From an uncultured Solirubrobacterales bacterium (lineage in GTDB: Bacteria; Actinomycetota; Thermoleophilia; Solirubrobacterales; 70-9), in the NCBI GenBank assembly GCA_963816505.1, contig CAWFKT010000002.1:448895-512894 (forward strand): a stretch of DNA of 64,000 nucleotides, read 5' to 3'. Of the stretch, positions 4,301 to 60,990 are shown one piece after another. Below the pieces are notes generated by a model. That model was not told the origin of the DNA and did not search any database. It worked only from the letters and a program-made list of their open reading frames with translations. How positions within the stretch are numbered: the stretch's first letter is position 1; every line of letters begins with the position of its first letter. Made by a program: the position numbers and the translations under genes.

Positions 4301-4415
4301 GGAAGGGCCGGGCACCCCTTCCGGCTCAACTTTTTGGATGTGGGGTGGAGTTGCTGGCGCCGCAAGGTTGGCGCCCAAAAAGTACAAGCCGCCGGAAGGG
4401 GTGCCCGGCCCTTCC
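4301..4415 (+). repeat. Palindromic element A (core-bearing family, forward orientation)
   Basis: Arms GGAAGGGCCGGGCACCCCTTCCGGC (4301-4325) and its exact reverse complement (4391-4415), 25/25 bp. Interior is TCAACTTTTTGGATG...GCCCAAAAAGTACAAGCC. Confidence 0.9.
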
Positions 4416-4446: not shown

Positions 4447-4930
4447 GTGAGCGGAGATACCGATTGGCCGGAGCAGCCTGCAGAGCGGGTTCGGGAGATC
4501 GTTGAGGGGGTCCTCGACGAGCTCGATCTGGAGGGCGAGGTCGAGATCGCCGAGGACGACGACCGGATCACCGCCTCGATCGACGGCGACGAGGACTACG
4601 GGCTGCTGATCGGCAAGCGGGGGCAGACGATCGACGCCCTGCAGCTGCTCGCCTACCAGGCCGCTTTCCGAGGGGTGCGCGAGCGCAAGCGGGTCGTGGT
4701 CGACGCCGCCGGCTATCGCGAGCGCCGTCGGGAGACGCTTGACGGCGCGGGCCGACCGGGCCGCGGAGCAGGCGCTGGACGACAGCGGCGCGGTCGAGAT
4801 GGACTCGATGAGCGCCCAGGAGCGGCGGGTCGTGCACGAGCACCTCAAGGAGCGGGCCGGGGTCGAGACTTACAGCGAAGGGGACGAGCCGCATCGGTGC
4901 GTGGTCGTTGCTCCTTTGGTTTCGGAGTGA
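4447..4930 (+). CDS. jag: Jag/KhpB-type RNA-binding protein (KH + R3H; one apparent frameshift near 4741)
   Basis: KH part in the frame of 4447 (...DYGLLIGKRGQTIDALQLLAYQ...). R3H part in the frame of ORF 4739..4930 (...MSAQERRVVHEHLKERAGVETYSEGDEPHRCVVVAP). Conserved position after yidC. Confidence 0.82.
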
Positions 4931-5044
4931 GGGAGCGCCCCGGTGGGGGTTCCGCTTAACTTTTTCGAGTCGCGCCCCGGCTGCTGACCATGGCCGGCGG
5001 CGAAAAAGTACAAGACGCTCCACCCCCACCGGGGCGCTCCCTCA
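4928..5044 (+). repeat. Palindromic element B (core-bearing family, forward orientation)
   Basis: Arms TGAGGGAGCGCCCCGGTGGGGGT (4928-4950) and the exact reverse complement (5022-5044), 23/23 bp. Interior is ...CTTAACTTTTTCGAG...CTGCTGAC...CGAAAAAGTACAAGACG... The left arm begins with the jag stop TGA. Confidence 0.9.
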
Positions 5045-5700: not shown

Positions 5701-5824
5701 GGTGCGGGGGCCGGTCCGGTGGAGCCTCGCGAAGCGGCCCCCGGCAAGGTGATCATGAGCCGCGAAGCGGCTCCAATTTGGTGAGCGAAGCGAACATAGG
5801 CTCCACCGGACCGGCCCCCGCACC
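5701..5824. repeat. Palindromic element C (different interior)
   Basis: Arms GGTGCGGGGGCCGGTCCGGTGGAGCC (5701-5726) and the exact reverse complement (5799-5824), 26/26 bp. The interior carries the direct repeat CGCGAAGCGGC at 5728 and 5761 and a central TGATCA. Confidence 0.9.
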
Positions 5825-10587: not shown

Positions 10588-11022
10588 GTGGGATCTTTCT
10601 CCGGAATCTGCCTCGAGCTCGGCGTCGGCATCGCGATCGGGATGCTCGCCGGCACCACCGGCACGCACGGCTCCGCCCGCGGGCGGATGACGATCCTGGC
10701 CGGAGTGATCGCCCTCGTGATCGGCTTTCTGCTTTCCGGCAGCGCCGAAGTGAGCAGCCTGGCGGGCGCCTTCTTCTGCCTCGTCGGCGCGGTGTTCGCC
10801 TGCCTGGTCGTCAGCGACGTGGTCAGCGGCGCCGGCCGGCGCGAGGGCGGCGGCAGCGGCGCCCTGGGCTTCCTCGTCTCGGTAGCGGCTCTAATCGTCC
10901 TAGCGATCGCAATTCTGATCTCACCAGCCATCCTGCTGATCATCGCCGCCTTGGTCTGGCTCGGTATCTCACGCCGGCGACGCGCCCAGCGTAAACACGC
11001 TGGACTGCGCGTACTGCGCTAA
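10588..11022 (+). CDS. Small integral membrane protein, unassigned
   Basis: 144 aa with about four hydrophobic helices (e.g. ILAGVIALVIGFLL, FFCLVGAVFACLVV, VAALIVLAIAILISPAILLIIAALVWLGI). No family recognised. Confidence 0.55.
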   Translation: MGSFSGICLELGVGIAIGMLAGTTGTHGSARGRMTILAGVIALVIGFLLSGSAEVSSLAGAFFCLVGAVFACLVVSDVVSGAGRREGGGSGALGFLVSVAALIVLAIAILISPAILLIIAALVWLGISRRRRAQRKHAGLRVLR

Positions 11023-11135
11023 GGCCTTCCCCGGTAGGGGTGGAACGTCTTGTACTTTTCCGGCAGCCGCTCGCGGCGTCAGCAGACGCGTCCACACCGG
11101 AAAAGTTAAGTGGAACCCCTACCGGGGAAGGCCTT
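11021..11135 (-). repeat. Palindromic element D (core-bearing family, reverse orientation)
   Basis: Arms AAGGCCTTCCCCGGTAGGGGT (11021-11041) and the exact reverse complement (11115-11135), 21/21 bp. Interior is CTTGTACTTTTCCGG...GTCAGCAG...CCGGAAAAGTTAAG, the reverse complement of the B-type core. Confidence 0.9.
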
Positions 11136-11167: not shown

Positions 11168-12685
11168 GTGCCCGCCAAGAAGCTGATCCTCACCTACGTC
11201 GACTCGTTGCGCACCGACATGCTCGTGCGCGCCGTCGACGAGGGGCGGGCGCCCACGTTCGGCGCCCTGATCGAGCGCGGCTCGCTGATCCCGGACTGCG
11301 TCTCCAGCTTCCCCTCCGTGACCCCGGTTGCCTGCGCCGAGATGGTCAGCGGCAGCGGTGCGGACGGGCACTGGATCAGCGGCATGAACTGGTACCACCG
11401 GCTCGAGCGACGCTACGTCGAGTACGGCTCCTCGCTGGAGGCGAGCCGCACCGTCGGCGTCTTTCGCACCCTCTACGACCTCGTCTACAACATGAACCTG
11501 GCCCACCTCAACCCCTCGATCGAGACCCTCTTCGAGCAGCTCGACGACGCCGGCCTGCGCACCGCCTGCACGCCCTTCCTGATCTACCGCGGCCGCCACC
11601 GCCACCAGGTATCGCTCGACGGGCTGCTGCGCCGCGCGGTCGACGCCACCCGGCTCAAGTTCCGCCACCACACCTGGGGGCCCGGCGAGCTCTTCTACGG
11701 CGACCTCTACGCCAGCCGCGAGGTTCCCTGCAAGTCGACCTCGATCCCGGGCAGCCGCGACGGCTACTCGGCCTGCTGCTCGGCGGAGCTGATCAAGGAC
11801 GACGGCTTCGACTTCCTGCTCTTCTCGCTTCCCGACAACGACAACTACTCGCACCGCTTCGGGCCGCAGGCCAGCGTCGAGTCGATCGCCAAGGCCGACC
11901 ACTGCTTCGGCAAAGTCGTCGATGCGGCGGGCGATCTCGACACCTTCCTCGACCGCTACGCGGTGATCCTGCTCGCCGACCACGCCCAGACGCCGGTGCA
12001 CCGCGGCCTGCCGCTGGCCGAGCTGCTCGGCCGTGAGTGGTCGGTGCTGCGCCCCTCGGAGTCCGAGCCGCAGAAAGCGCAGCTGGCGGTCAGCCCGACC
12101 GGCCGCGCCGCCCACGTCTACCTGCTGGCGGGGGAGGGGGAGCGGGCCGACCCTGAGGCGGTGGGGCGAGCGCTGGGCGAGATCGAAGGCGTCGACCTGG
12201 TCTGCTGGATGGAGACGGTCGACGGCGCGCCGCTGAGGCGAGAAGAGCCGGGCACGCCGGGAAGCGACGCGGTCGCGGTGATCGAACGAGACGGCCGGCG
12301 ACTCAGCTTCGGTCCCGGTACTGCCGCGGCCGATCTCCGCGGTGGGCACTGGCAGCTCGACGGGGACCTCGCCGTCTTGGAGGCAACGATCGAGGGCGGT
12401 CGGCTGCGCAGCGAGGCCTATCCTGACCCGCTCGCCCGAGTCTGGTCGGCGCTGAGCGGCCCGCACGCCGGCGACTTCATCGTCTCCCTGGCGGAGGGCT
12501 ACGAGGCAGTCGACTGGGGAGGCGTCTCCCACGCCGGCGGCGGCAGCCACGGCGCCCTCCAAGCCGGCGACTCGCTCGGCCCGCTCCTCTTCGTCGGCTG
12601 CGGCCCAGACGACCCAGGCCGGCGAGAGCAATGGGCTCTGCGCGATGTGACCCCCGTGGTGCTTGACCACTTCGGATTGACCTGA
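11168..12685 (+). CDS. Alkaline-phosphatase-superfamily type I phosphodiesterase/nucleotide pyrophosphatase-like protein
   Basis: ...TYVDSLRTDML...SSFPSVTPVACAEMVSG..., ...LFSLPDNDNYSHRFGP..., ...ILLADHAQ... resemble metal and nucleophile motifs of the AlkP superfamily. 505 aa. Confidence 0.65.
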   Translation: MPAKKLILTYVDSLRTDMLVRAVDEGRAPTFGALIERGSLIPDCVSSFPSVTPVACAEMVSGSGADGHWISGMNWYHRLERRYVEYGSSLEASRTVGVFRTLYDLVYNMNLAHLNPSIETLFEQLDDAGLRTACTPFLIYRGRHRHQVSLDGLLRRAVDATRLKFRHHTWGPGELFYGDLYASREVPCKSTSIPGSRDGYSACCSAELIKDDGFDFLLFSLPDNDNYSHRFGPQASVESIAKADHCFGKVVDAAGDLDTFLDRYAVILLADHAQTPVHRGLPLAELLGREWSVLRPSESEPQKAQLAVSPTGRAAHVYLLAGEGERADPEAVGRALGEIEGVDLVCWMETVDGAPLRREEPGTPGSDAVAVIERDGRRLSFGPGTAAADLRGGHWQLDGDLAVLEATIEGGRLRSEAYPDPLARVWSALSGPHAGDFIVSLAEGYEAVDWGGVSHAGGGSHGALQAGDSLGPLLFVGCGPDDPGRREQWALRDVTPVVLDHFGLT

Positions 12686-14358
12686 TGCGGAAGAGCGCCC
12701 TGTGCCTCCTGCTCTTTGTGGCGCTCCTCTTGCCCGCAACCGCATCGGCCGAGGTCGGCGCATCGCAAGCGACCCGCATCGCCGCGCATGACCCGAATGC
12801 AATCAAGGAGCGCGAAGAGAACACGGTGCTCACCCACAGCGCCAGCAAGGTCGAAGGCAGCTGGGATGTCGCCTACTTCGCCGACGAAAAAGAGGTCGCG
12901 CTGGTCATCGTCGACCCGAAGACCGGCCGCGTGCGCGAGTCGTGGACCGGCTATCAGGTCGCCTGGAAAATGGCCCGCGGCTACTCCGGCGCCTTCGGCC
13001 ACAAGCTCAACGCCCCCTACGTCTTCCTGCCGCTCTGCGCGATCTTCCTGCTCGGGCTGGTCGACTGGCGGCGGTTGAGGCGCATCGCCAACCTCGACCT
13101 CGTCTTCCTGCTCGGCTTCGGCGTCTCCAACTTCTTCTTCAACCGGGCCGAAATCGGCGTCTCGGTCCCGCTCCAGTACATCCCGCTCGTCTACCTCTTC
13201 GGCCGGGCGCTGTGGATCGGCCTGCGTGGCCGGGGGGAGGGGATCAAGCCCGCCTGGCCGGCAGCCTGGCTGCTCGTCGCCGCGCTCTTCCTGATCGGCT
13301 TCAGGGTCGGGCTCAACATGGCCGACTCGGGCGCGATCGACGTCGGCTACGCCGGCGTGGTCGGCGCCGATCGGATCTCCCACGGCGAACCGATCTACGG
13401 CAACTTCCCCAAAGACGTCTCCCAGGGAGACACCTACGGCCCGGTCAACTACTTCGCCTACGTCCCCTTCGAGCGGATCTGGCCCTGGTCGGGAACCTGG
13501 AACGACCTCCCCGCAGCCCACGGCGCGGCGGTCTTCTTCGACCTAGCCACCTTCGCCCTCCTGATCCTCCTGGGCCGCCGAATCCGCCCCGGCCCCGAGG
13601 GCAACAAACTCGCAGCGACCCTGGCCTTCGGCTGGGCGGCATACCCCTACACGGCCTACGCCCTCCTATCGAACTCCAACGACACCCTGGTGGCGATGCT
13701 GCTGGTGGCAACACTGTTGGCACTGGCGCGCCCTGCTGCTCGAGGTGTCATGGCGGCACTTGCGACGCTGGCAAAGTTCGCACCGGCGGTGTTGGTCCCG
13801 ATGCTCGCGACGTATCGGCCCGCGGGTCCTGTCGCCGCAGGGGACCCACCACCCCTTCCGGTCGCTAAAGCGTCCTCAGGGGAGGTCCCCCCTGCGACGC
13901 CACCCGCGGGAGTGAAGTTTGCGATTGCTTTCGCACTCACAGCGCTTGCCCTGCTGCTGTGGCCCGCGATAGATCCCGGCCTGCACACGTTCTACGACCG
14001 GACGATTGCCTATCAAGCCGGCCGAAATTCACCATTCAGCATCTGGGGGCAGGTAGCTTGGCTGGAACCCGCACGCATCGCGATCCTCGCAGCAGTCGCC
14101 GCCCTCGCCCTGCTCTTTGCTTTCCGCCCCAAGGAGAAGAAGCTCACGCAAGTAGCAGCGCTGGGTGCGTCTCTCCTAATCGGCCTGCAGCTAACGATGC
14201 ACCACTGGTTCTACCTCTACATAGTCTGGTTCTACCCACTACTCCTCATAGCCCTGGTGTCCCTGGAAAGGAAGTCGGATACCCCTCCGAACGGCTTGTA
14301 CTTTTTCGGCGATACAAACTCGGCCAGCCGATCACTCTCCACCGAAAAAGTTGAGTGA
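12685..14358 (+). CDS. Polytopic GT-C-like membrane glycosyltransferase (DUF2029/GT87-like) with N-terminal extracytoplasmic domain
   Basis: Signal peptide, about 90 aa soluble domain, then at least 10 hydrophobic helices. Loop ...DVGYAGVVGADRISHGEPIYG...DTYGPVNYFAYVP... The ATG overlaps the upstream stop (TGATG). The last ~29 codons lie inside repeat E. Confidence 0.55.
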   Translation: MRKSALCLLLFVALLLPATASAEVGASQATRIAAHDPNAIKEREENTVLTHSASKVEGSWDVAYFADEKEVALVIVDPKTGRVRESWTGYQVAWKMARGYSGAFGHKLNAPYVFLPLCAIFLLGLVDWRRLRRIANLDLVFLLGFGVSNFFFNRAEIGVSVPLQYIPLVYLFGRALWIGLRGRGEGIKPAWPAAWLLVAALFLIGFRVGLNMADSGAIDVGYAGVVGADRISHGEPIYGNFPKDVSQGDTYGPVNYFAYVPFERIWPWSGTWNDLPAAHGAAVFFDLATFALLILLGRRIRPGPEGNKLAATLAFGWAAYPYTAYALLSNSNDTLVAMLLVATLLALARPAARGVMAALATLAKFAPAVLVPMLATYRPAGPVAAGDPPPLPVAKASSGEVPPATPPAGVKFAIAFALTALALLLWPAIDPGLHTFYDRTIAYQAGRNSPFSIWGQVAWLEPARIAILAAVAALALLFAFRPKEKKLTQVAALGASLLIGLQLTMHHWFYLYIVWFYPLLLIALVSLERKSDTPPNGLYFFGDTNSASRSLSTEKVE

Positions 14359-14377
14359 GGAGGGGTATCCGACTTCC
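14270..14377 (-). repeat. Palindromic element E (core-bearing family, reverse orientation)
   Basis: Arms GGAAGTCGGATACCCCTCC (14270-14288) and the exact reverse complement (14359-14377), 19/19 bp. Interior is CTTGTACTTTTTCGG...CCGAAAAAGTTGAGTG. Confidence 0.9.
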
Positions 14378-18047: not shown

Positions 18048-18122
18048 GGGACGCGGGTGCCCCTACCCCGGACGCACGGCTTCGCCGTGCTTGAGTGTCC
18101 GGGGTAGGGGCACCCGCGTCCC
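18048..18122. repeat. Palindromic element F (short, core-less relative)
   Basis: Arms GGGACGCGGGTGCCCCTACCCCGGAC (18048-18073) and the exact reverse complement (18097-18122), 26/26 bp. The 23-nt loop GCACGGCTTCGCCGTGCTTGAGT is itself a small hairpin. Confidence 0.9.
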
Positions 18123-51223: not shown

Positions 51224-51257
51224 AGACGGCGAGGGACTATAGCGGCAGGGGGCGGCG

Positions 51258-51357
51258 GTCGGGTACCCCTTCCCGCTCAACTTTTTGGATGGGTGCGTAT
51301 GGCGACGCCTCAAGGTGGACGCCCAAAAAGTACAAGCCGCGGGAAGGGGTACCCGAC
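51258..51357 (+). repeat. Palindromic element G (core-bearing family, forward orientation)
   Basis: Arms GTCGGGTACCCCTTCCCGC (51258-51276) and the exact reverse complement (51339-51357), 19/19 bp. The interior TCAACTTTTTGGATG...GCCCAAAAAGTACAAGCC is nearly identical to element A. Confidence 0.9.
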
Positions 51358-51438
51358 AGCTCGCTCTCAGTGGGGCGCGAACACCGCTGATCCGTCTTCG
51401 GGAGCGGCCGGCGCGGAGACGACCGGTGGGGGAGCTTC

Positions 51439-58847: not shown

Positions 58848-59927
58848 GTGGAGCGCAGCGAGCCACTTCTACACCGCATCGGCGAGGCCGGGGCGAAATT
58901 CGGCACCAAGCCGCCGCGCAGCAAACGCGTCCGGCTGGCGATCCAGCTCGGCATCGCGATCCTCGTCTTCGGCTTCCTCGTCCTCACCGTCGTCAACCAG
59001 TGGGCCGAGATCAAGGACAAGGGCGTCCACTTCCACGTCCTCTGGCTGATCCCGGCCTTCGTCGTCCTGCCGATCTTCTACGCGCTCAACGCGGTCGGCT
59101 GGGACCTGATCCTGCGCTTCCTCGGCTACCGGCTCGGGGCAGGGCGGGCGCAGGTCGCCTGGGGCCAGCCGCTGCTGGCCCGCTACGTGCCCGGCAGCGT
59201 TCTCTACGTCCTCGGTCGGGTCCTGCTCTCCGAGCGGGTGGGGGTGCCGCGGCGCTTGACGATTGCCAGCATCGTCTACGAACAGGCGCTGCAGGCGACC
59301 TCGGCGGTCATCGTCGCCGCCTACTTCCTGATCGACCACCCCGACCTGCAGGGCCAGTCGTGGCGCTGGGGGGTGCTGGTGCTGATCCCGCTGGCGATCG
59401 CGCTGCTGCACCCGCGCGTCTTTGGCCCGCTCGCAAACCGGGTGCTGCGGGCGTTCGGCAGGGAGCCGCTGCCGGAGGTGATCTCGCTGCGCGGGGTCTT
59501 CGCCGTGCTCGCTTTCTACACGCTCAACTGGGGCGTCGCCGCGGTCGGCATCTGGTGCGTGGCGCGCTCGGTCAGCTCGATCGCGCCGAGCGACATGCTC
59601 GCCGCCGGCGCCGCCCAGGCCTTCGGCTACGTGGCGGCGCTGGTCACCCTCGTCGCCCCCGCCGGCCTCGGTGTCCGCGACGCGGCGTTTGCCTGGGCCT
59701 TCAAGTCGGTGGCGCCGGGCAACAGCTTCGCGGTCGCCTCGCTGGTGGCGATCGTCGTGCGGGGGGTGCTTACGCTGGTCGAACTGATCTATGTCGCGAT
59801 CGTTACGGCTATGGGGCGGCGGGAGGGGTGGTCCATTCATACGGGGGTAATTCACCCGTCGCCCGAGGAGGAACGGGCCGAGGAGGGGGAGTCCCCCGCC
59901 CGAACTCGCGGGCTTCGCCCGCTCTGA
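58848..59927 (+). CDS. Flippase-like / LPG-synthase-TM (UPF0104-like) membrane protein
   Basis: 359 aa with about 8 TM helices. ...AVGWDLILRFLGYRL...LLARYVPGSVLYVLGRV... pattern. The last ~18 codons lie inside repeat H. Confidence 0.5.
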   Translation: MERSEPLLHRIGEAGAKFGTKPPRSKRVRLAIQLGIAILVFGFLVLTVVNQWAEIKDKGVHFHVLWLIPAFVVLPIFYALNAVGWDLILRFLGYRLGAGRAQVAWGQPLLARYVPGSVLYVLGRVLLSERVGVPRRLTIASIVYEQALQATSAVIVAAYFLIDHPDLQGQSWRWGVLVLIPLAIALLHPRVFGPLANRVLRAFGREPLPEVISLRGVFAVLAFYTLNWGVAAVGIWCVARSVSSIAPSDMLAAGAAQAFGYVAALVTLVAPAGLGVRDAAFAWAFKSVAPGNSFAVASLVAIVVRGVLTLVELIYVAIVTAMGRREGWSIHTGVIHPSPEEERAEEGESPARTRGLRPL

Positions 59928-59965
59928 GTATCCGCCCGTTCGGGGGACTCCCCCTCCTCGGCCCG
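59874..59965. repeat. Palindromic element H (core-less relative)
   Basis: Arms CGGGCCGAGGAGGGGGAGTCCCCCG (59874-59898) and the exact reverse complement (59941-59965), 25/25 bp. The interior contains GCTCTGAGTATCC, similar to the loop of F. Confidence 0.9.
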
Positions 59966-59967
59966 CG

Positions 59968-60990
59968 TCAAAGCGGGACGCGCGCTCCTAGTTGGTAGGC
60001 GGTGAGCACCAAGAGGAGAAGCTTTAGGGCTCGGTCTCTTGAGAGAGCTGCGGCGGGCAATGGCCATAGGAGATACCAGGGGAGGAGCCAGGCGGTGGCT
60101 AGCAGAAGACCAAAGGTGGCCCAGGCGGTGGCGCGTAGCCAGTCGTTGCCTCGGTAGGTCCAGGTGAGGAGGTAGATGATGAGGGCTGCGTATAGGGCCA
60201 GGGCGGCGGCTCTTGTTGCGGCGCTGTCCAGGCCGGTGATGCGGGCGATGGTTGTCGGGATGCTTAGGTGGCTCGTGTGGCCCTGGTTCTCGCCTGCCTG
60301 CCCGAGCGCGTCGAGCCAGTGCCAGCCGAAACCGAGATACGCAGCGCCCCCGATCGCAGCGAGCGCCCCGGCAGCCCCAACCAACAGTCGGCCGATGGGC
60401 CGAAATGTCGACCTGGAGTTGACATTTCGGCCCATCGGCGGCCGGTTCACGACGCCGAGGAGGGCGAAGGGGGCTGCCACCGCGGCCGAGGCCTTGATGG
60501 CGACTGCGGCTACGAGGGACGCGCCGGCTGAAGCCTCTCGCGCCGTCAGCACGCCCGCTATGCCGAGCGTGGTCAGCAGGACGGCGATGGCGTCATTGTG
60601 GGGACCGCCGACTACGTGTACGAGGACCAGGGGGTTGAGGGCGACGAAGGCGGCGGCCCGCAGCGGGTCGATGCCGCGGGCGGGGGCGAGGCGGGCTACC
60701 AGGGCCGCGATCGTGAGGACGGCCAGGGCCGAGGCGGCCTTGAGGACGTAGACCGCGACGCCGACCGGCAGCCAGGCGAGCGGGTAGGTCGCCAGGGTGA
60801 AGAGGGGGCCGTAGGCGCTGGTCGTGTGGGGCCAGGTGACGTGAGCGAAGGCGGGGTCGCCCGGGGCCGCGGCCGGTCCCCGCAAGTAGGGGTCGATGCC
60901 GTGCAGGGCGCCGAGGCGGGCGTAGTCGACGTAGCTGTAGATGTCGTGGGAGAGCAGCGGCGGCAGGCAGGCGAAGGCGAGGAGGAGCAC
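59968..60990 (-). CDS. GT87/DUF2029-like polyprenol-phosphate-mannose-dependent mannosyltransferase (N-terminus probably longer)
   Basis: ...LLSHDIYSYVDYARLGALHGIDPY...TSAYGPLFTLATYP... plus at least 8 TM helices. The frame stays open upstream to 61107 and encodes a further TM (AAYALIWAGFLAYLGVLAW), but no canonical start codon lies there. Confidence 0.65.
   Translation of the reverse strand: MLLLAFACLPPLLSHDIYSYVDYARLGALHGIDPYLRGPAAAPGDPAFAHVTWPHTTSAYGPLFTLATYPLAWLPVGVAVYVLKAASALAVLTIAALVARLAPARGIDPLRAAAFVALNPLVLVHVVGGPHNDAIAVLLTTLGIAGVLTAREASAGASLVAAVAIKASAAVAAPFALLGVVNRPPMGRNVNSRSTFRPIGRLLVGAAGALAAIGGAAYLGFGWHWLDALGQAGENQGHTSHLSIPTTIARITGLDSAATRAAALALYAALIIYLLTWTYRGNDWLRATAWATFGLLLATAWLLPWYLLWPLPAAALSRDRALKLLLLVLTAYQLGARVPL
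60391..60439. repeat. Perfect 19-bp inverted repeat embedded in-frame in the GT87-like CDS
   Basis: GCCGATGGGCCGAAATGTC (60391-60409), an 11-nt loop, then GACATTTCGGCCCATCGGC (60421-60439). Encodes ...PMGRNVNSRSTFRPIG... on the minus strand. The centre is AT-richer than its surroundings. Confidence 0.85.

Follow-up and report, generated by a model that had tools for sequence, protein, structure and literature searches.

An apparently undescribed family of hairpin repeats in Solirubrobacterales, with arms that change together and remain complementary

Within a 64,000-nt stretch from an uncultured Solirubrobacterales bacterium (contig CAWFKT010000002.1; hereafter the window), eight hairpins with long complementary arms are found, five of which (elements A, B, D, E and G) belong to one family, family 1, which is apparently an undescribed hairpin repeat family of this order. 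Among them, element B is a 117-nt inverted repeat between jag/khpB and rsmG, whose arms TGAGGGAGCGCCCCGGTGGGGGT (4928-4950) and ACCCCCACCGGGGCGCTCCCTCA (5022-5044) have a spacing of 71 nt. The initial annotation had attributed the pairing of such arms, despite their different sequences in different copies, to selection on the hairpin or to arm-to-arm templated correction. This proposal is supported by the present analysis and the evidence leans to templated correction. On balance, and with modest confidence, family 1 is interpreted as a mobile hairpin, similar to miniature inverted-repeat transposable elements (MITEs) and to hairpins made of doublets of repetitive extragenic palindromes (REPINs), the arms of which are kept complementary by DNA-level templating of one arm on the other, with selection assisting.

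Copies were collected using the core pattern TCC-RC-TT-AACTTTTTCG, loop, CGAAAAAGT-ACAAG-AC-GY-TCC, which sets no condition on the arms, and from rsmG-anchored metagenome loci, giving a set of 146 distinct family-1 copies. The pattern retrieved 120 genome loci, mostly from metagenome-assembled genomes (MAGs) of Solirubrobacterales/Thermoleophilia, with chance matches lacking arms in AT-rich taxa and viral contigs, and 65 further copies were present in 321 kb of the metagenome loci. A mismatch-rich larger set, named in the initial annotation as the outcome that would speak against it, was not what was found, since 95.5% of stem cells in the 146 copies are Watson-Crick pairs, and 83% of the copies carry at most two mismatches in a 20-bp stem. 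Perfection of the arms is not universal: 69 copies (47%) are free of mismatches, 30 have one, 22 have two, nine have three or four and 16 have five or more, and 13 of the 146 fall under a cut-off of 15 of 20 pairs.

Covariation was analysed in an alignment of 81 of 90 copies, namely those with at least 15 of 20 pairs; the orthologue analyses described below are unfiltered. In this alignment 96.7% of the stem cells are paired, compared with 71.4% in shuffles, and all 21 pairs of the outer stem (P1) have changed on both sides, many of them showing all four Watson-Crick types. Changes on both sides are also observed in a 2-bp RC/GY helix (columns 27/101: GC 42, AU 34) and in the three innermost pairs of the inner stem P2 (helix 3), which is paired in 99.5%. 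Cells with double changes number 598, as compared to 146 in shuffles. The alignment and covariation statistics suggested in the initial annotation thus gave a signal far above both kinds of control, the covariation score being 0.637, while shuffles give 0.153 and partners slid by 1-3 columns no more than 0.161, with pairing down to 41-54% in the latter. The second adverse outcome named in the initial annotation, a lack of covariation, did not occur either.

At the jag-rsmG junction, a family-1 element is carried by 46 of 82 orthologous loci, with position and orientation shared by all of them and a distance to the conserved RsmG codons of 36 or 39 nt in most. The stems of these orthologues are mostly perfect, yet very unlike one another. 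Compensated stem differences grow with the divergence of the host gene (Mantel r 0.31, p 0.0005) and reach 0.19-0.37 per pair, the corresponding divergence of rsmG third codon positions being 0.34-0.52 and that of the loop 0.25-0.30; differences that involve a mismatch amount to only 0.08-0.12. A comparison of orthologous copies for double versus single substitutions had also been suggested initially, and doubles indeed exceed singles, with 188 against 68 in 760 positions of 38 nearest-neighbour pairs. Purine/pyrimidine swaps account for 83 of the 188 doubles (44%), and such changes cannot pass through a wobble pair.

The same tendency is seen at shorter distance. An exact-protein look-up with ParA found no strain-level relatives on record, and closer relatives (L321-L325) were reached via a protein cluster. 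The window and L322 share 88% nucleotide identity over 12 kb, and in this interval two of the 19 bp of element E have been replaced in compensated fashion (both A:T to G:C) and none is altered on one side only, with three changes in its 70-nt interior, the outer palindrome at the site of element C differs by two adjacent compensated pairs out of 11, and element F is identical. In total, four doubles and no singles are found in 56 pairs, corresponding to 8 substitutions in 112 stem nucleotides, all of them exact complements.

The pace of these replacements was set against rate models, which are our own calculation. Under strong selection against mismatches, compensated replacement would proceed at approximately 2v/s of the neutral rate, which is orders of magnitude too slow. 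A stepwise model with weak selection, in which 3.5-4.5% mismatched pairs imply a scaled selection coefficient of about 4.4, would give a turnover of approximately 0.05 of the neutral rate. Unbiased arm-to-arm conversion, in turn, would bring the turnover ratio close to 1 and leave few mismatches standing, and transversion-type doubles would arise freely, without a bias to wobble pairs. With third positions as reference, the observed ratio of stem turnover is 0.3-0.6 or more; with the loop as reference, it is about 1. Since this matches the conversion model and exceeds the prediction of about 0.05, templating is favoured over stepwise selection.

For an RNA stem under selection, an excess of G·U on its own strand is expected. 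In the 2,660 stem cells, 50 mismatches are A·C, 32 are G·T and 37 are of transversion type, a spectrum like that of raw mutations, in which wobble pairs are no commoner than the other kinds; a strand-specific tolerance of wobble pairs was considered for the A·C excess and rejected, as this excess is due to one hot column, without which the counts (37 against 31) do not differ significantly. At stem position 13, counted from the core, 13 of 133 copies (L002, L016, L022, L044, L046 and L054 among them) share a C·A mismatch (ggCagg / cctAcc), with the reciprocal T·G found once; this mismatch may mark a subfamily, reflect G·T tolerance on the opposite strand or result from a mutational asymmetry. 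In an unbiased set, about 24 elements have the same orientation as the gene ending at them and about 16 the opposite one, and about 16 further elements lie between convergent genes. At the site of element F in L323, the loop is inverted between the same flanks, with arms that differ at many positions and are perfect over 25 bp. The lack of a G·T excess and the mixed orientation do not fit a structured functional RNA, for which wobble tolerance and consistent orientation would be expected. Because of the missing wobble bias, the mixed orientation and the in-place inversion of the loop, the observations point to arm complementarity being maintained at the DNA and not at the RNA level.

According to the favoured interpretation, purifying selection acts on the sequence of the family-1 core, which would be read by a propagating or host protein, while P1 would need only to form a duplex whose length is fixed. 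When one arm changes, the change would be either reverted or copied to the other arm by intramolecular template switching within the quasi-palindrome during replication, and the stem would thus drift near the neutral rate while remaining paired. Selection probably helps, favouring both transposability and a stable hairpin downstream of the stop codon. In part, the outermost 8-9 bp may be derived from the insertion site, either from a pre-existing short palindrome or from an inverted copy of the flank, instead of reflecting compensatory substitution. This origin of the outer arms bears only on the compensatory share of these 8-9 bp and not on the in-place result with orthologues.

Several points weigh against this interpretation. 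Selection clearly acts on the element and is still required, because pairing is never 'perfected' at the TCC x TCC and TTA/ACAAGAC junctions, because P1 prefers a length of about 21 bp, which is unexplained by an open-ended mutational process alone, and because element F is invariant between diverged genomes. Selection and conversion are moreover not cleanly separable by sequence data alone, and template switching across a 70-nt spacer is extrapolated to these bacteria by analogy. The rate comparison rests on near-saturated third positions of distant orthologues (third-position divergence, d3, at least 0.25) and on a neighbour-joining tree of a single gene, on which filled and empty jag-rsmG states are interleaved, and it assumes that the 46 copies descend from one insertion. 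Some jag-rsmG orthologues carry 4-5 mismatches (L170, L142), and about 9% of the 146 copies are decayed. With regard to mobility, no target-site duplication was detected (the longest direct repeat shared by the flanks averages 4.14, against 4.12 in the control), no long autonomous version with split half-sites was found in 978 kb, and neither a transposase nor any other linked protein was found, although the test, a tblastn search for REP-associated tyrosine transposase (RAYT) genes with an E. coli sequence in the Solirubrobacterales loci and the window, was a weak one. Because neither a parent element nor a target-site duplication was found, the evidence for mobility is confined to patterns of presence and absence.

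Selection alone, with independent paired point mutations preserving a functional hairpin such as a 3' structure of messenger RNA, a terminator, an RNase III site or a cruciform or protein-binding site, is considered unlikely. It would account for the proximity of elements to stop codons, often those of two convergent genes, for the strong conservation of the core and of the unpaired junction, for the complete identity of element F between genomes that differ by 12% overall, and for the incorporation of element B in the rsmG start. An RNA-level version is opposed by the lack of G·U excess on either strand and by the mixed orientation. The near-silent-site turnover, with only 3-4.5% mismatches and 44% transversion-type doubles, also argues against selection alone, given that stepwise models yield about 0.05 of the neutral rate or less by our calculation, and the stability of a stem of about -45 kcal/mol should hardly suffer from one mismatch.

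A still less probable explanation, to which little weight is given, is that the arms for the most part do not reflect compensatory substitution: a mobile core with inner arms would enter the apex of a palindrome or terminator hairpin already located after a stop codon, or trigger an inverted copy of the flank, and the outer arms would then come from the site, with frequent turnover keeping the copies young and perfect. Comparison of filled and empty sites speaks for it. In L322 (255-285), the site of element C contains only GGATCGGGGGC-A-GCCCCCGATCC directly after the rsmG stop codon, with 11-bp arms that match the outer arms of C, representing either a palindrome that preceded insertion or the footprint of a deletion, and the site of element D holds a single TAGGGCCTT. 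At jag-rsmG, too, the empty sites of L161, L181 and L188 carry either one arm or a short palindrome corresponding to the outer arms seen where the element is present. Among copies with loops that are 86-94% identical, outer arms are near-random (mean identity 0.39), and the outer 9-bp segments are no direct repeats, with 26% direct identity (control 29%) against 92% inverted complementarity within the copy. The in-frame hairpin of L323/L324 described below fits as well. However, site-derived arms leave unexplained the compensated changes between orthologues, which occur in the inner as well as the outer stem, and no irregularity is seen at the supposed junction between the two parts. Furthermore, the zero-loop palindromes at empty sites are equally like deletion footprints, and few close pairs of filled and empty sites were sampled.

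Chance, either as a small-sample accident or as generic self-complementarity in a genome of 68% G+C with arms rich in G/C runs, is practically dismissed, as about 100 perfect inverted repeats of at least 16 bp were observed in 656 kb of related DNA against about one in a first-order Markov shuffle, the core pattern occurs five times in the window and in none of 100 shuffles, and pairing holds in the 146 copies and collapses with slid partners; DNA folding z-scores are -6.3 to -9.0.

Gain and loss are evident at orthologous sites. Element D is absent in L321 and L322 (86-88% nucleotide identity), and element E, shared with L322, is lacking in L321, L323 and L324; presence/absence polymorphism as in classical MITEs is thus observed. 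In L321 (~17414), one arm of element F is left, GGGGCACCCCGTCCC, for which a deletion is the best reading, given that three relatives retain the element; it lies at 6740-6815 in L323 and at ~15508-15570 in L322. The yidC-jag spacer varies from 2 to 441 nt and contains 0-3 elements of differing families in either orientation, and the window and L102 both carry family 1 at jag-rsmG and different families in the two adjacent spacers. The segment AAGGCCTT of element D is itself palindromic and is hence uninformative on target-site duplication. No plasmid match to the family-1 element was obtained, the hairpin was present in none of the viral pattern matches listed (at least 120), all of which were AT-rich chance matches without arms, and genes between pairs of elements gave no Pfam match. 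The contigs of L323, L324 and L325 begin within the 5' end of the gene just downstream of the D site, which would fit a repeat at this site halting assembly.

Features of the eight hairpins of the window and subdivision of element B
Feature	Position	Strand	Details
Element A (family 1, CTCAAC...CAAGCC subfamily)	4301..4415	+	between yidC and jag; 25 bp, 100%; 85.9 bits
Element B (family 1)	4928..5044	+	113.4 bits with the family model; DNA fold -48.8 kcal/mol, z -8.85
Element B, outer stem P1, 5' arm	4928..4950	+	pairs with 5022-5044; 23 nt, 100% complementary
Element B, internal loop, 5' side	4951..4958	+	TCC, GC, TT and A
Element B, inner stem P2, 5' strand ACTTTTTCG	4959..4967	+	partner CGAAAAAGT at 5001-5009
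Element B, apical region	4968..5000	+	carries the family-conserved GC-TG-N-C motif
Element B, P2 3' strand CGAAAAAGT, conserved bulge ACAAG, AC-GC-TCC	5001..5021	+	
Element B, P1 3' arm	5022..5044	+	23 nt, 100% complementary
Element C (another hairpin family)	5701..5824	.	27 bp, 100%; three GCGAAGC motifs in the loop
Element D (family 1, core reversed)	11021..11135	-	21 bp, 100%; 116.4 bits
Element E (family 1)	14270..14377	-	between convergent genes; 19 bp, 100%; 89.3 bits
Element F (another family: GC-rich hairpin and TTGAGT in the loop)	18048..18122	.	26 bp, 100%
Element G (family 1)	51255..51360	+	22 nt at 95%, i.e. 19 perfect bp, then one mismatch; 76 bits
Element H (relative of F; loop end ...TCTGAGTATCCGCCCGTT)	59874..59965	.	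25 bp, 100%; between convergent genes

The eight hairpins, which had at first been treated as copies of one kind, represent at least three families. With the family-1 covariance model, elements A, B, D, E and G score 76-116 bits, and elements C, F and H score as generic hairpins only (24-33 bits, on both strands); in F and H alike, T(C)TGAGT comes after a GC-rich inner hairpin. The arm lengths given in the initial annotation are right, the only difference being that in element G the 19 perfect bp precede one mismatch. The paired substitutions that it had reported were verified in the sequence, namely CCCCGGTGGGGGT/ACCCCCACCGGGG in B against CCCCGGTAGGGGT/ACCCCTACCGGGG in D, and GGGCACCCCTTCCGGC in A against GGGTACCCCTTCCCGC in G, each with its complementary partner, as were the strings of differing outer arm parts, GAGGGAGCG versus AAGGCCTT.

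Family-1 elements consist, from 5' to 3', of an arm, TCC-RC-TT, AAC-TTTTT-CG, about 35 nt, CG-AAAAA-GT, ACAAG, AC-GY-TCC and the complementary arm, with the interior on the opposite strand in D and E. They form an outer stem P1 of about 21 bp and an inner stem P2 of 9 bp (ACTTTTTCG/CGAAAAAGT), separated by a strictly conserved and asymmetric junction, in which TCC x TCC is unpaired, RC and GY form a 2-bp helix and TTA faces ACAAGAC. The apical region of about 35 nt contains the GC-TG-N-C motif family-wide. In variant copies (L186 at 2913 and 4263, L196 at 1555), P2 is formed by AACTTGCTCGG...CCGAGAAGT replacing T5/A5, and the T run is therefore a covarying and not an essential feature. Copies are located 0-4 nt from stop codons in both orientations, and the distance between the core and the stop codons of neighbouring genes is most often 28-32 nt, which corresponds to the base of the stem. 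Some flanking open reading frames (ORFs) enter the element and end at a stop codon in the core, as observed for the TGA of GTTGAG in element E (ORF 12685-14358) and for the TAA of CTTAAC in five loci (L009, L029, L041, L057 and L069), and in these cases the element, as judged from the reading frames, supplies the gene end.

In element B, the TCC on the 4951 side is unpaired and faces the TCC at 5019-5021, and GC pairs with GC at 5017-5018, a 2-bp helix with GC/AT covariation across the family; the fold of single-stranded DNA on the opposite strand is equally stable. Pfam matches establish the gene order of an origin region, with dnaN and dnaA on the minus strand and yidC, jag/khpB (KH and R3H domains), rsmG and parA on the plus strand. 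The first bases of element B are the jag stop codon TGA (4928-4930), and its 3' end lies 5 nt upstream of the conserved RsmG N-terminus. An ATG at 4990-4992 in the apical region, seen only at the jag-rsmG site, is in frame with rsmG, and the gene call of the source record also begins at 4990. An in-frame start codon within the element is found in all 46 orthologous copies: 30 have the apical-loop ATG at the conserved position, and in several others GTACAAG is changed to GTGCAAG, yielding an in-frame GTG. In relatives without the element, rsmG starts with a GTG overlapping the jag stop codon (GTGA). Because of these in-frame starts within copies and the GTG(A) starts at empty sites, the RsmG N-terminus (MAGGEKVQDAPPPPGRSLSEAQ...) is probably encoded by the 3' half of element B, including the P1 3' arm. 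The frame of jag/khpB seems shifted near 4745-4755, with KH in the frame from 4447 and R3H in the frame ending at TGA 4928-4930, reflecting either a real frameshift or an assembly error.

Other hairpin repeats are present in the same genomes. A second family, CTGGGATTTTTGCC...GCAAAAATCAGGACGCCGC, was found in L089 (949-1077 and 5376-5497), L052 (5924-6044), L002 (3877-3996) and L033 (3476-3598), and the layout TTCGCTT...T5...A5...GACGC common to it and to family 1 suggests that the two form a superfamily. At least four further families have a core inside a perfect hairpin. A palindrome, GCCGATGGGCCGAAATGTC / GGCCGACGGGCCGATATGTCAAGG, with arms of 19-24 bp and a short loop, occurs in the window (60391-60439) and in L005 (1580-1630), contains no family-1 core and could represent an operator or a different repeat. 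A hairpin of about 60 nt with the core TCGAGGACGGACCGTGGCCCGCCCGCAG is found in L323 (1510-1570) and in L325, in frame within the N-terminal coding part of a GT87-like gene, where it adds 20 codons relative to L324 (~1362-1400); the same core is also present in L072 with different arms.

No Rfam family corresponds to family 1 or to the other hairpins of the window in searches of Rfam 15 at gathering and permissive E-value thresholds. At the gathering threshold only two transfer RNAs (tRNAs) were matched in the window, and identity of the element as tRNA or transfer-messenger RNA was rejected as unrelated; the strongest sub-threshold matches are to generic long hairpins (microRNA precursors), the rest being weak (E >0.8) and to assorted RNAs. 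No description of such repeats was found in the literature on Solirubrobacter, Conexibacter or Thermoleophilia.

The usual answer to the question of how stems persist, selected paired point mutations, predicts slow stem evolution and wobble intermediates. The fast stem turnover observed here in hundreds of related hairpins, with orthologues in many genomes, no wobble bias and many transversion-type doubles, makes template switching testable in nature and at the bench. In an under-studied soil lineage, short intergenic spacers are seen to be colonised by hairpins that supply stop codons and, for rsmG, even a start codon. For annotators, the family is a warning that covariation by itself is no proof of a functional RNA, and it accounts for contig breaks and odd gene starts in MAGs of Solirubrobacterales. 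A more far-reaching and doubtful scenario is that Solirubrobacterales carry at least six families of structure-defined mobile hairpins, in which a protein would read the asymmetric junction and measure a two-turn stem of free sequence; such elements would settle at palindromes after stop codons or create an inverted flank copy, their interior could flip in place, and template switching would make their arms evolve in concert at a rate near neutral. If true, this would be a genome-scale natural demonstration that template switching, and not the selection of paired mutations, maintains long perfect stems, and a hairpin-specific mobilising enzyme would be implied.

As regards known systems, attC sites are about 60-140 nt long, lie directly after stop codons, keep their structure while the sequence varies and retain unpaired bases. 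Family 1 resembles them in these respects and in an RYYYAAC-like motif (GCTTAAC/GCTCAAC). Identity as an integron attC was nevertheless rejected, as this motif is internal and lacks a GTTRRRY partner, no cassette array is present, both orientations occur, and the neighbours are origin-proximal housekeeping genes (dnaN, dnaA, yidC, jag, rsmG and parA). An intrinsic terminator with a U tract was rejected as well, since no T run follows the 3' arm and the T5 run lies inside the hairpin, as was a sigma-70 promoter (CTGAC...TACAAG), whose spacing of 21-23 nt by eye is too long. The loop subtype is not a marker of position either, as an ATGG-type loop is also found at loci without a match to the jag/rsmG flanking proteins.

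Template switching in quasi-palindromes creates and repairs perfect stems (Monttinen & Loytynoja 2022, PMC8794818; also PMC5453318, PMC3820800), with evidence mainly from ribosomal RNA and other RNA genes and from short-loop reporter hotspots (PMC8794818, PMC5453318, PMC3820800). Such a process would account for doubles that arise in one step, transversions included, and for the lack of wobble intermediates, and likewise for loop inversion and for an extension of arm identity. It is, however, a process and not an element family, and is here extrapolated to a structured 70-nt interior and to hundreds of hairpins per genome.

REPINs and hairpin-forming MITEs are the kinds of element closest to family 1. 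REPINs are REP-doublet hairpins mobilised by RAYT transposases, and compensatory changes across their hairpin were reported to be common (Bertels & Rainey 2011, PMC3116915). Family 1 is like them in being an extragenic hairpin of about 100 bp with inverted arms about 70 nt apart, present in high copy number (five copies in the 64 kb here) and subject to gain and loss. In REPINs the REP 16-mer ends are conserved and the spacer is free, whereas in family 1 the interior is conserved and the 21 arm pairs vary; GTAG is frequent but not fixed in family-1 arms, and the host of family 1 is an actinobacterial order. Classical MITEs (Correia/nemis, ERIC, RUP) are short, non-coding and intergenic, vary in presence between relatives and occur in both orientations, and they fold as long hairpins that can give neighbouring genes stops, starts or processing sites. 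Hairpin folding, intergenic placement, presence/absence and both orientations are shared by family 1, whereas its arms are copy-specific without a conserved terminal inverted-repeat sequence, it shows no target-site duplication and no related full-length insertion sequence is found in about 1 Mb. Compensated hairpin repeats are already known, and it is the scale, the rate evidence and the architecture that are new.

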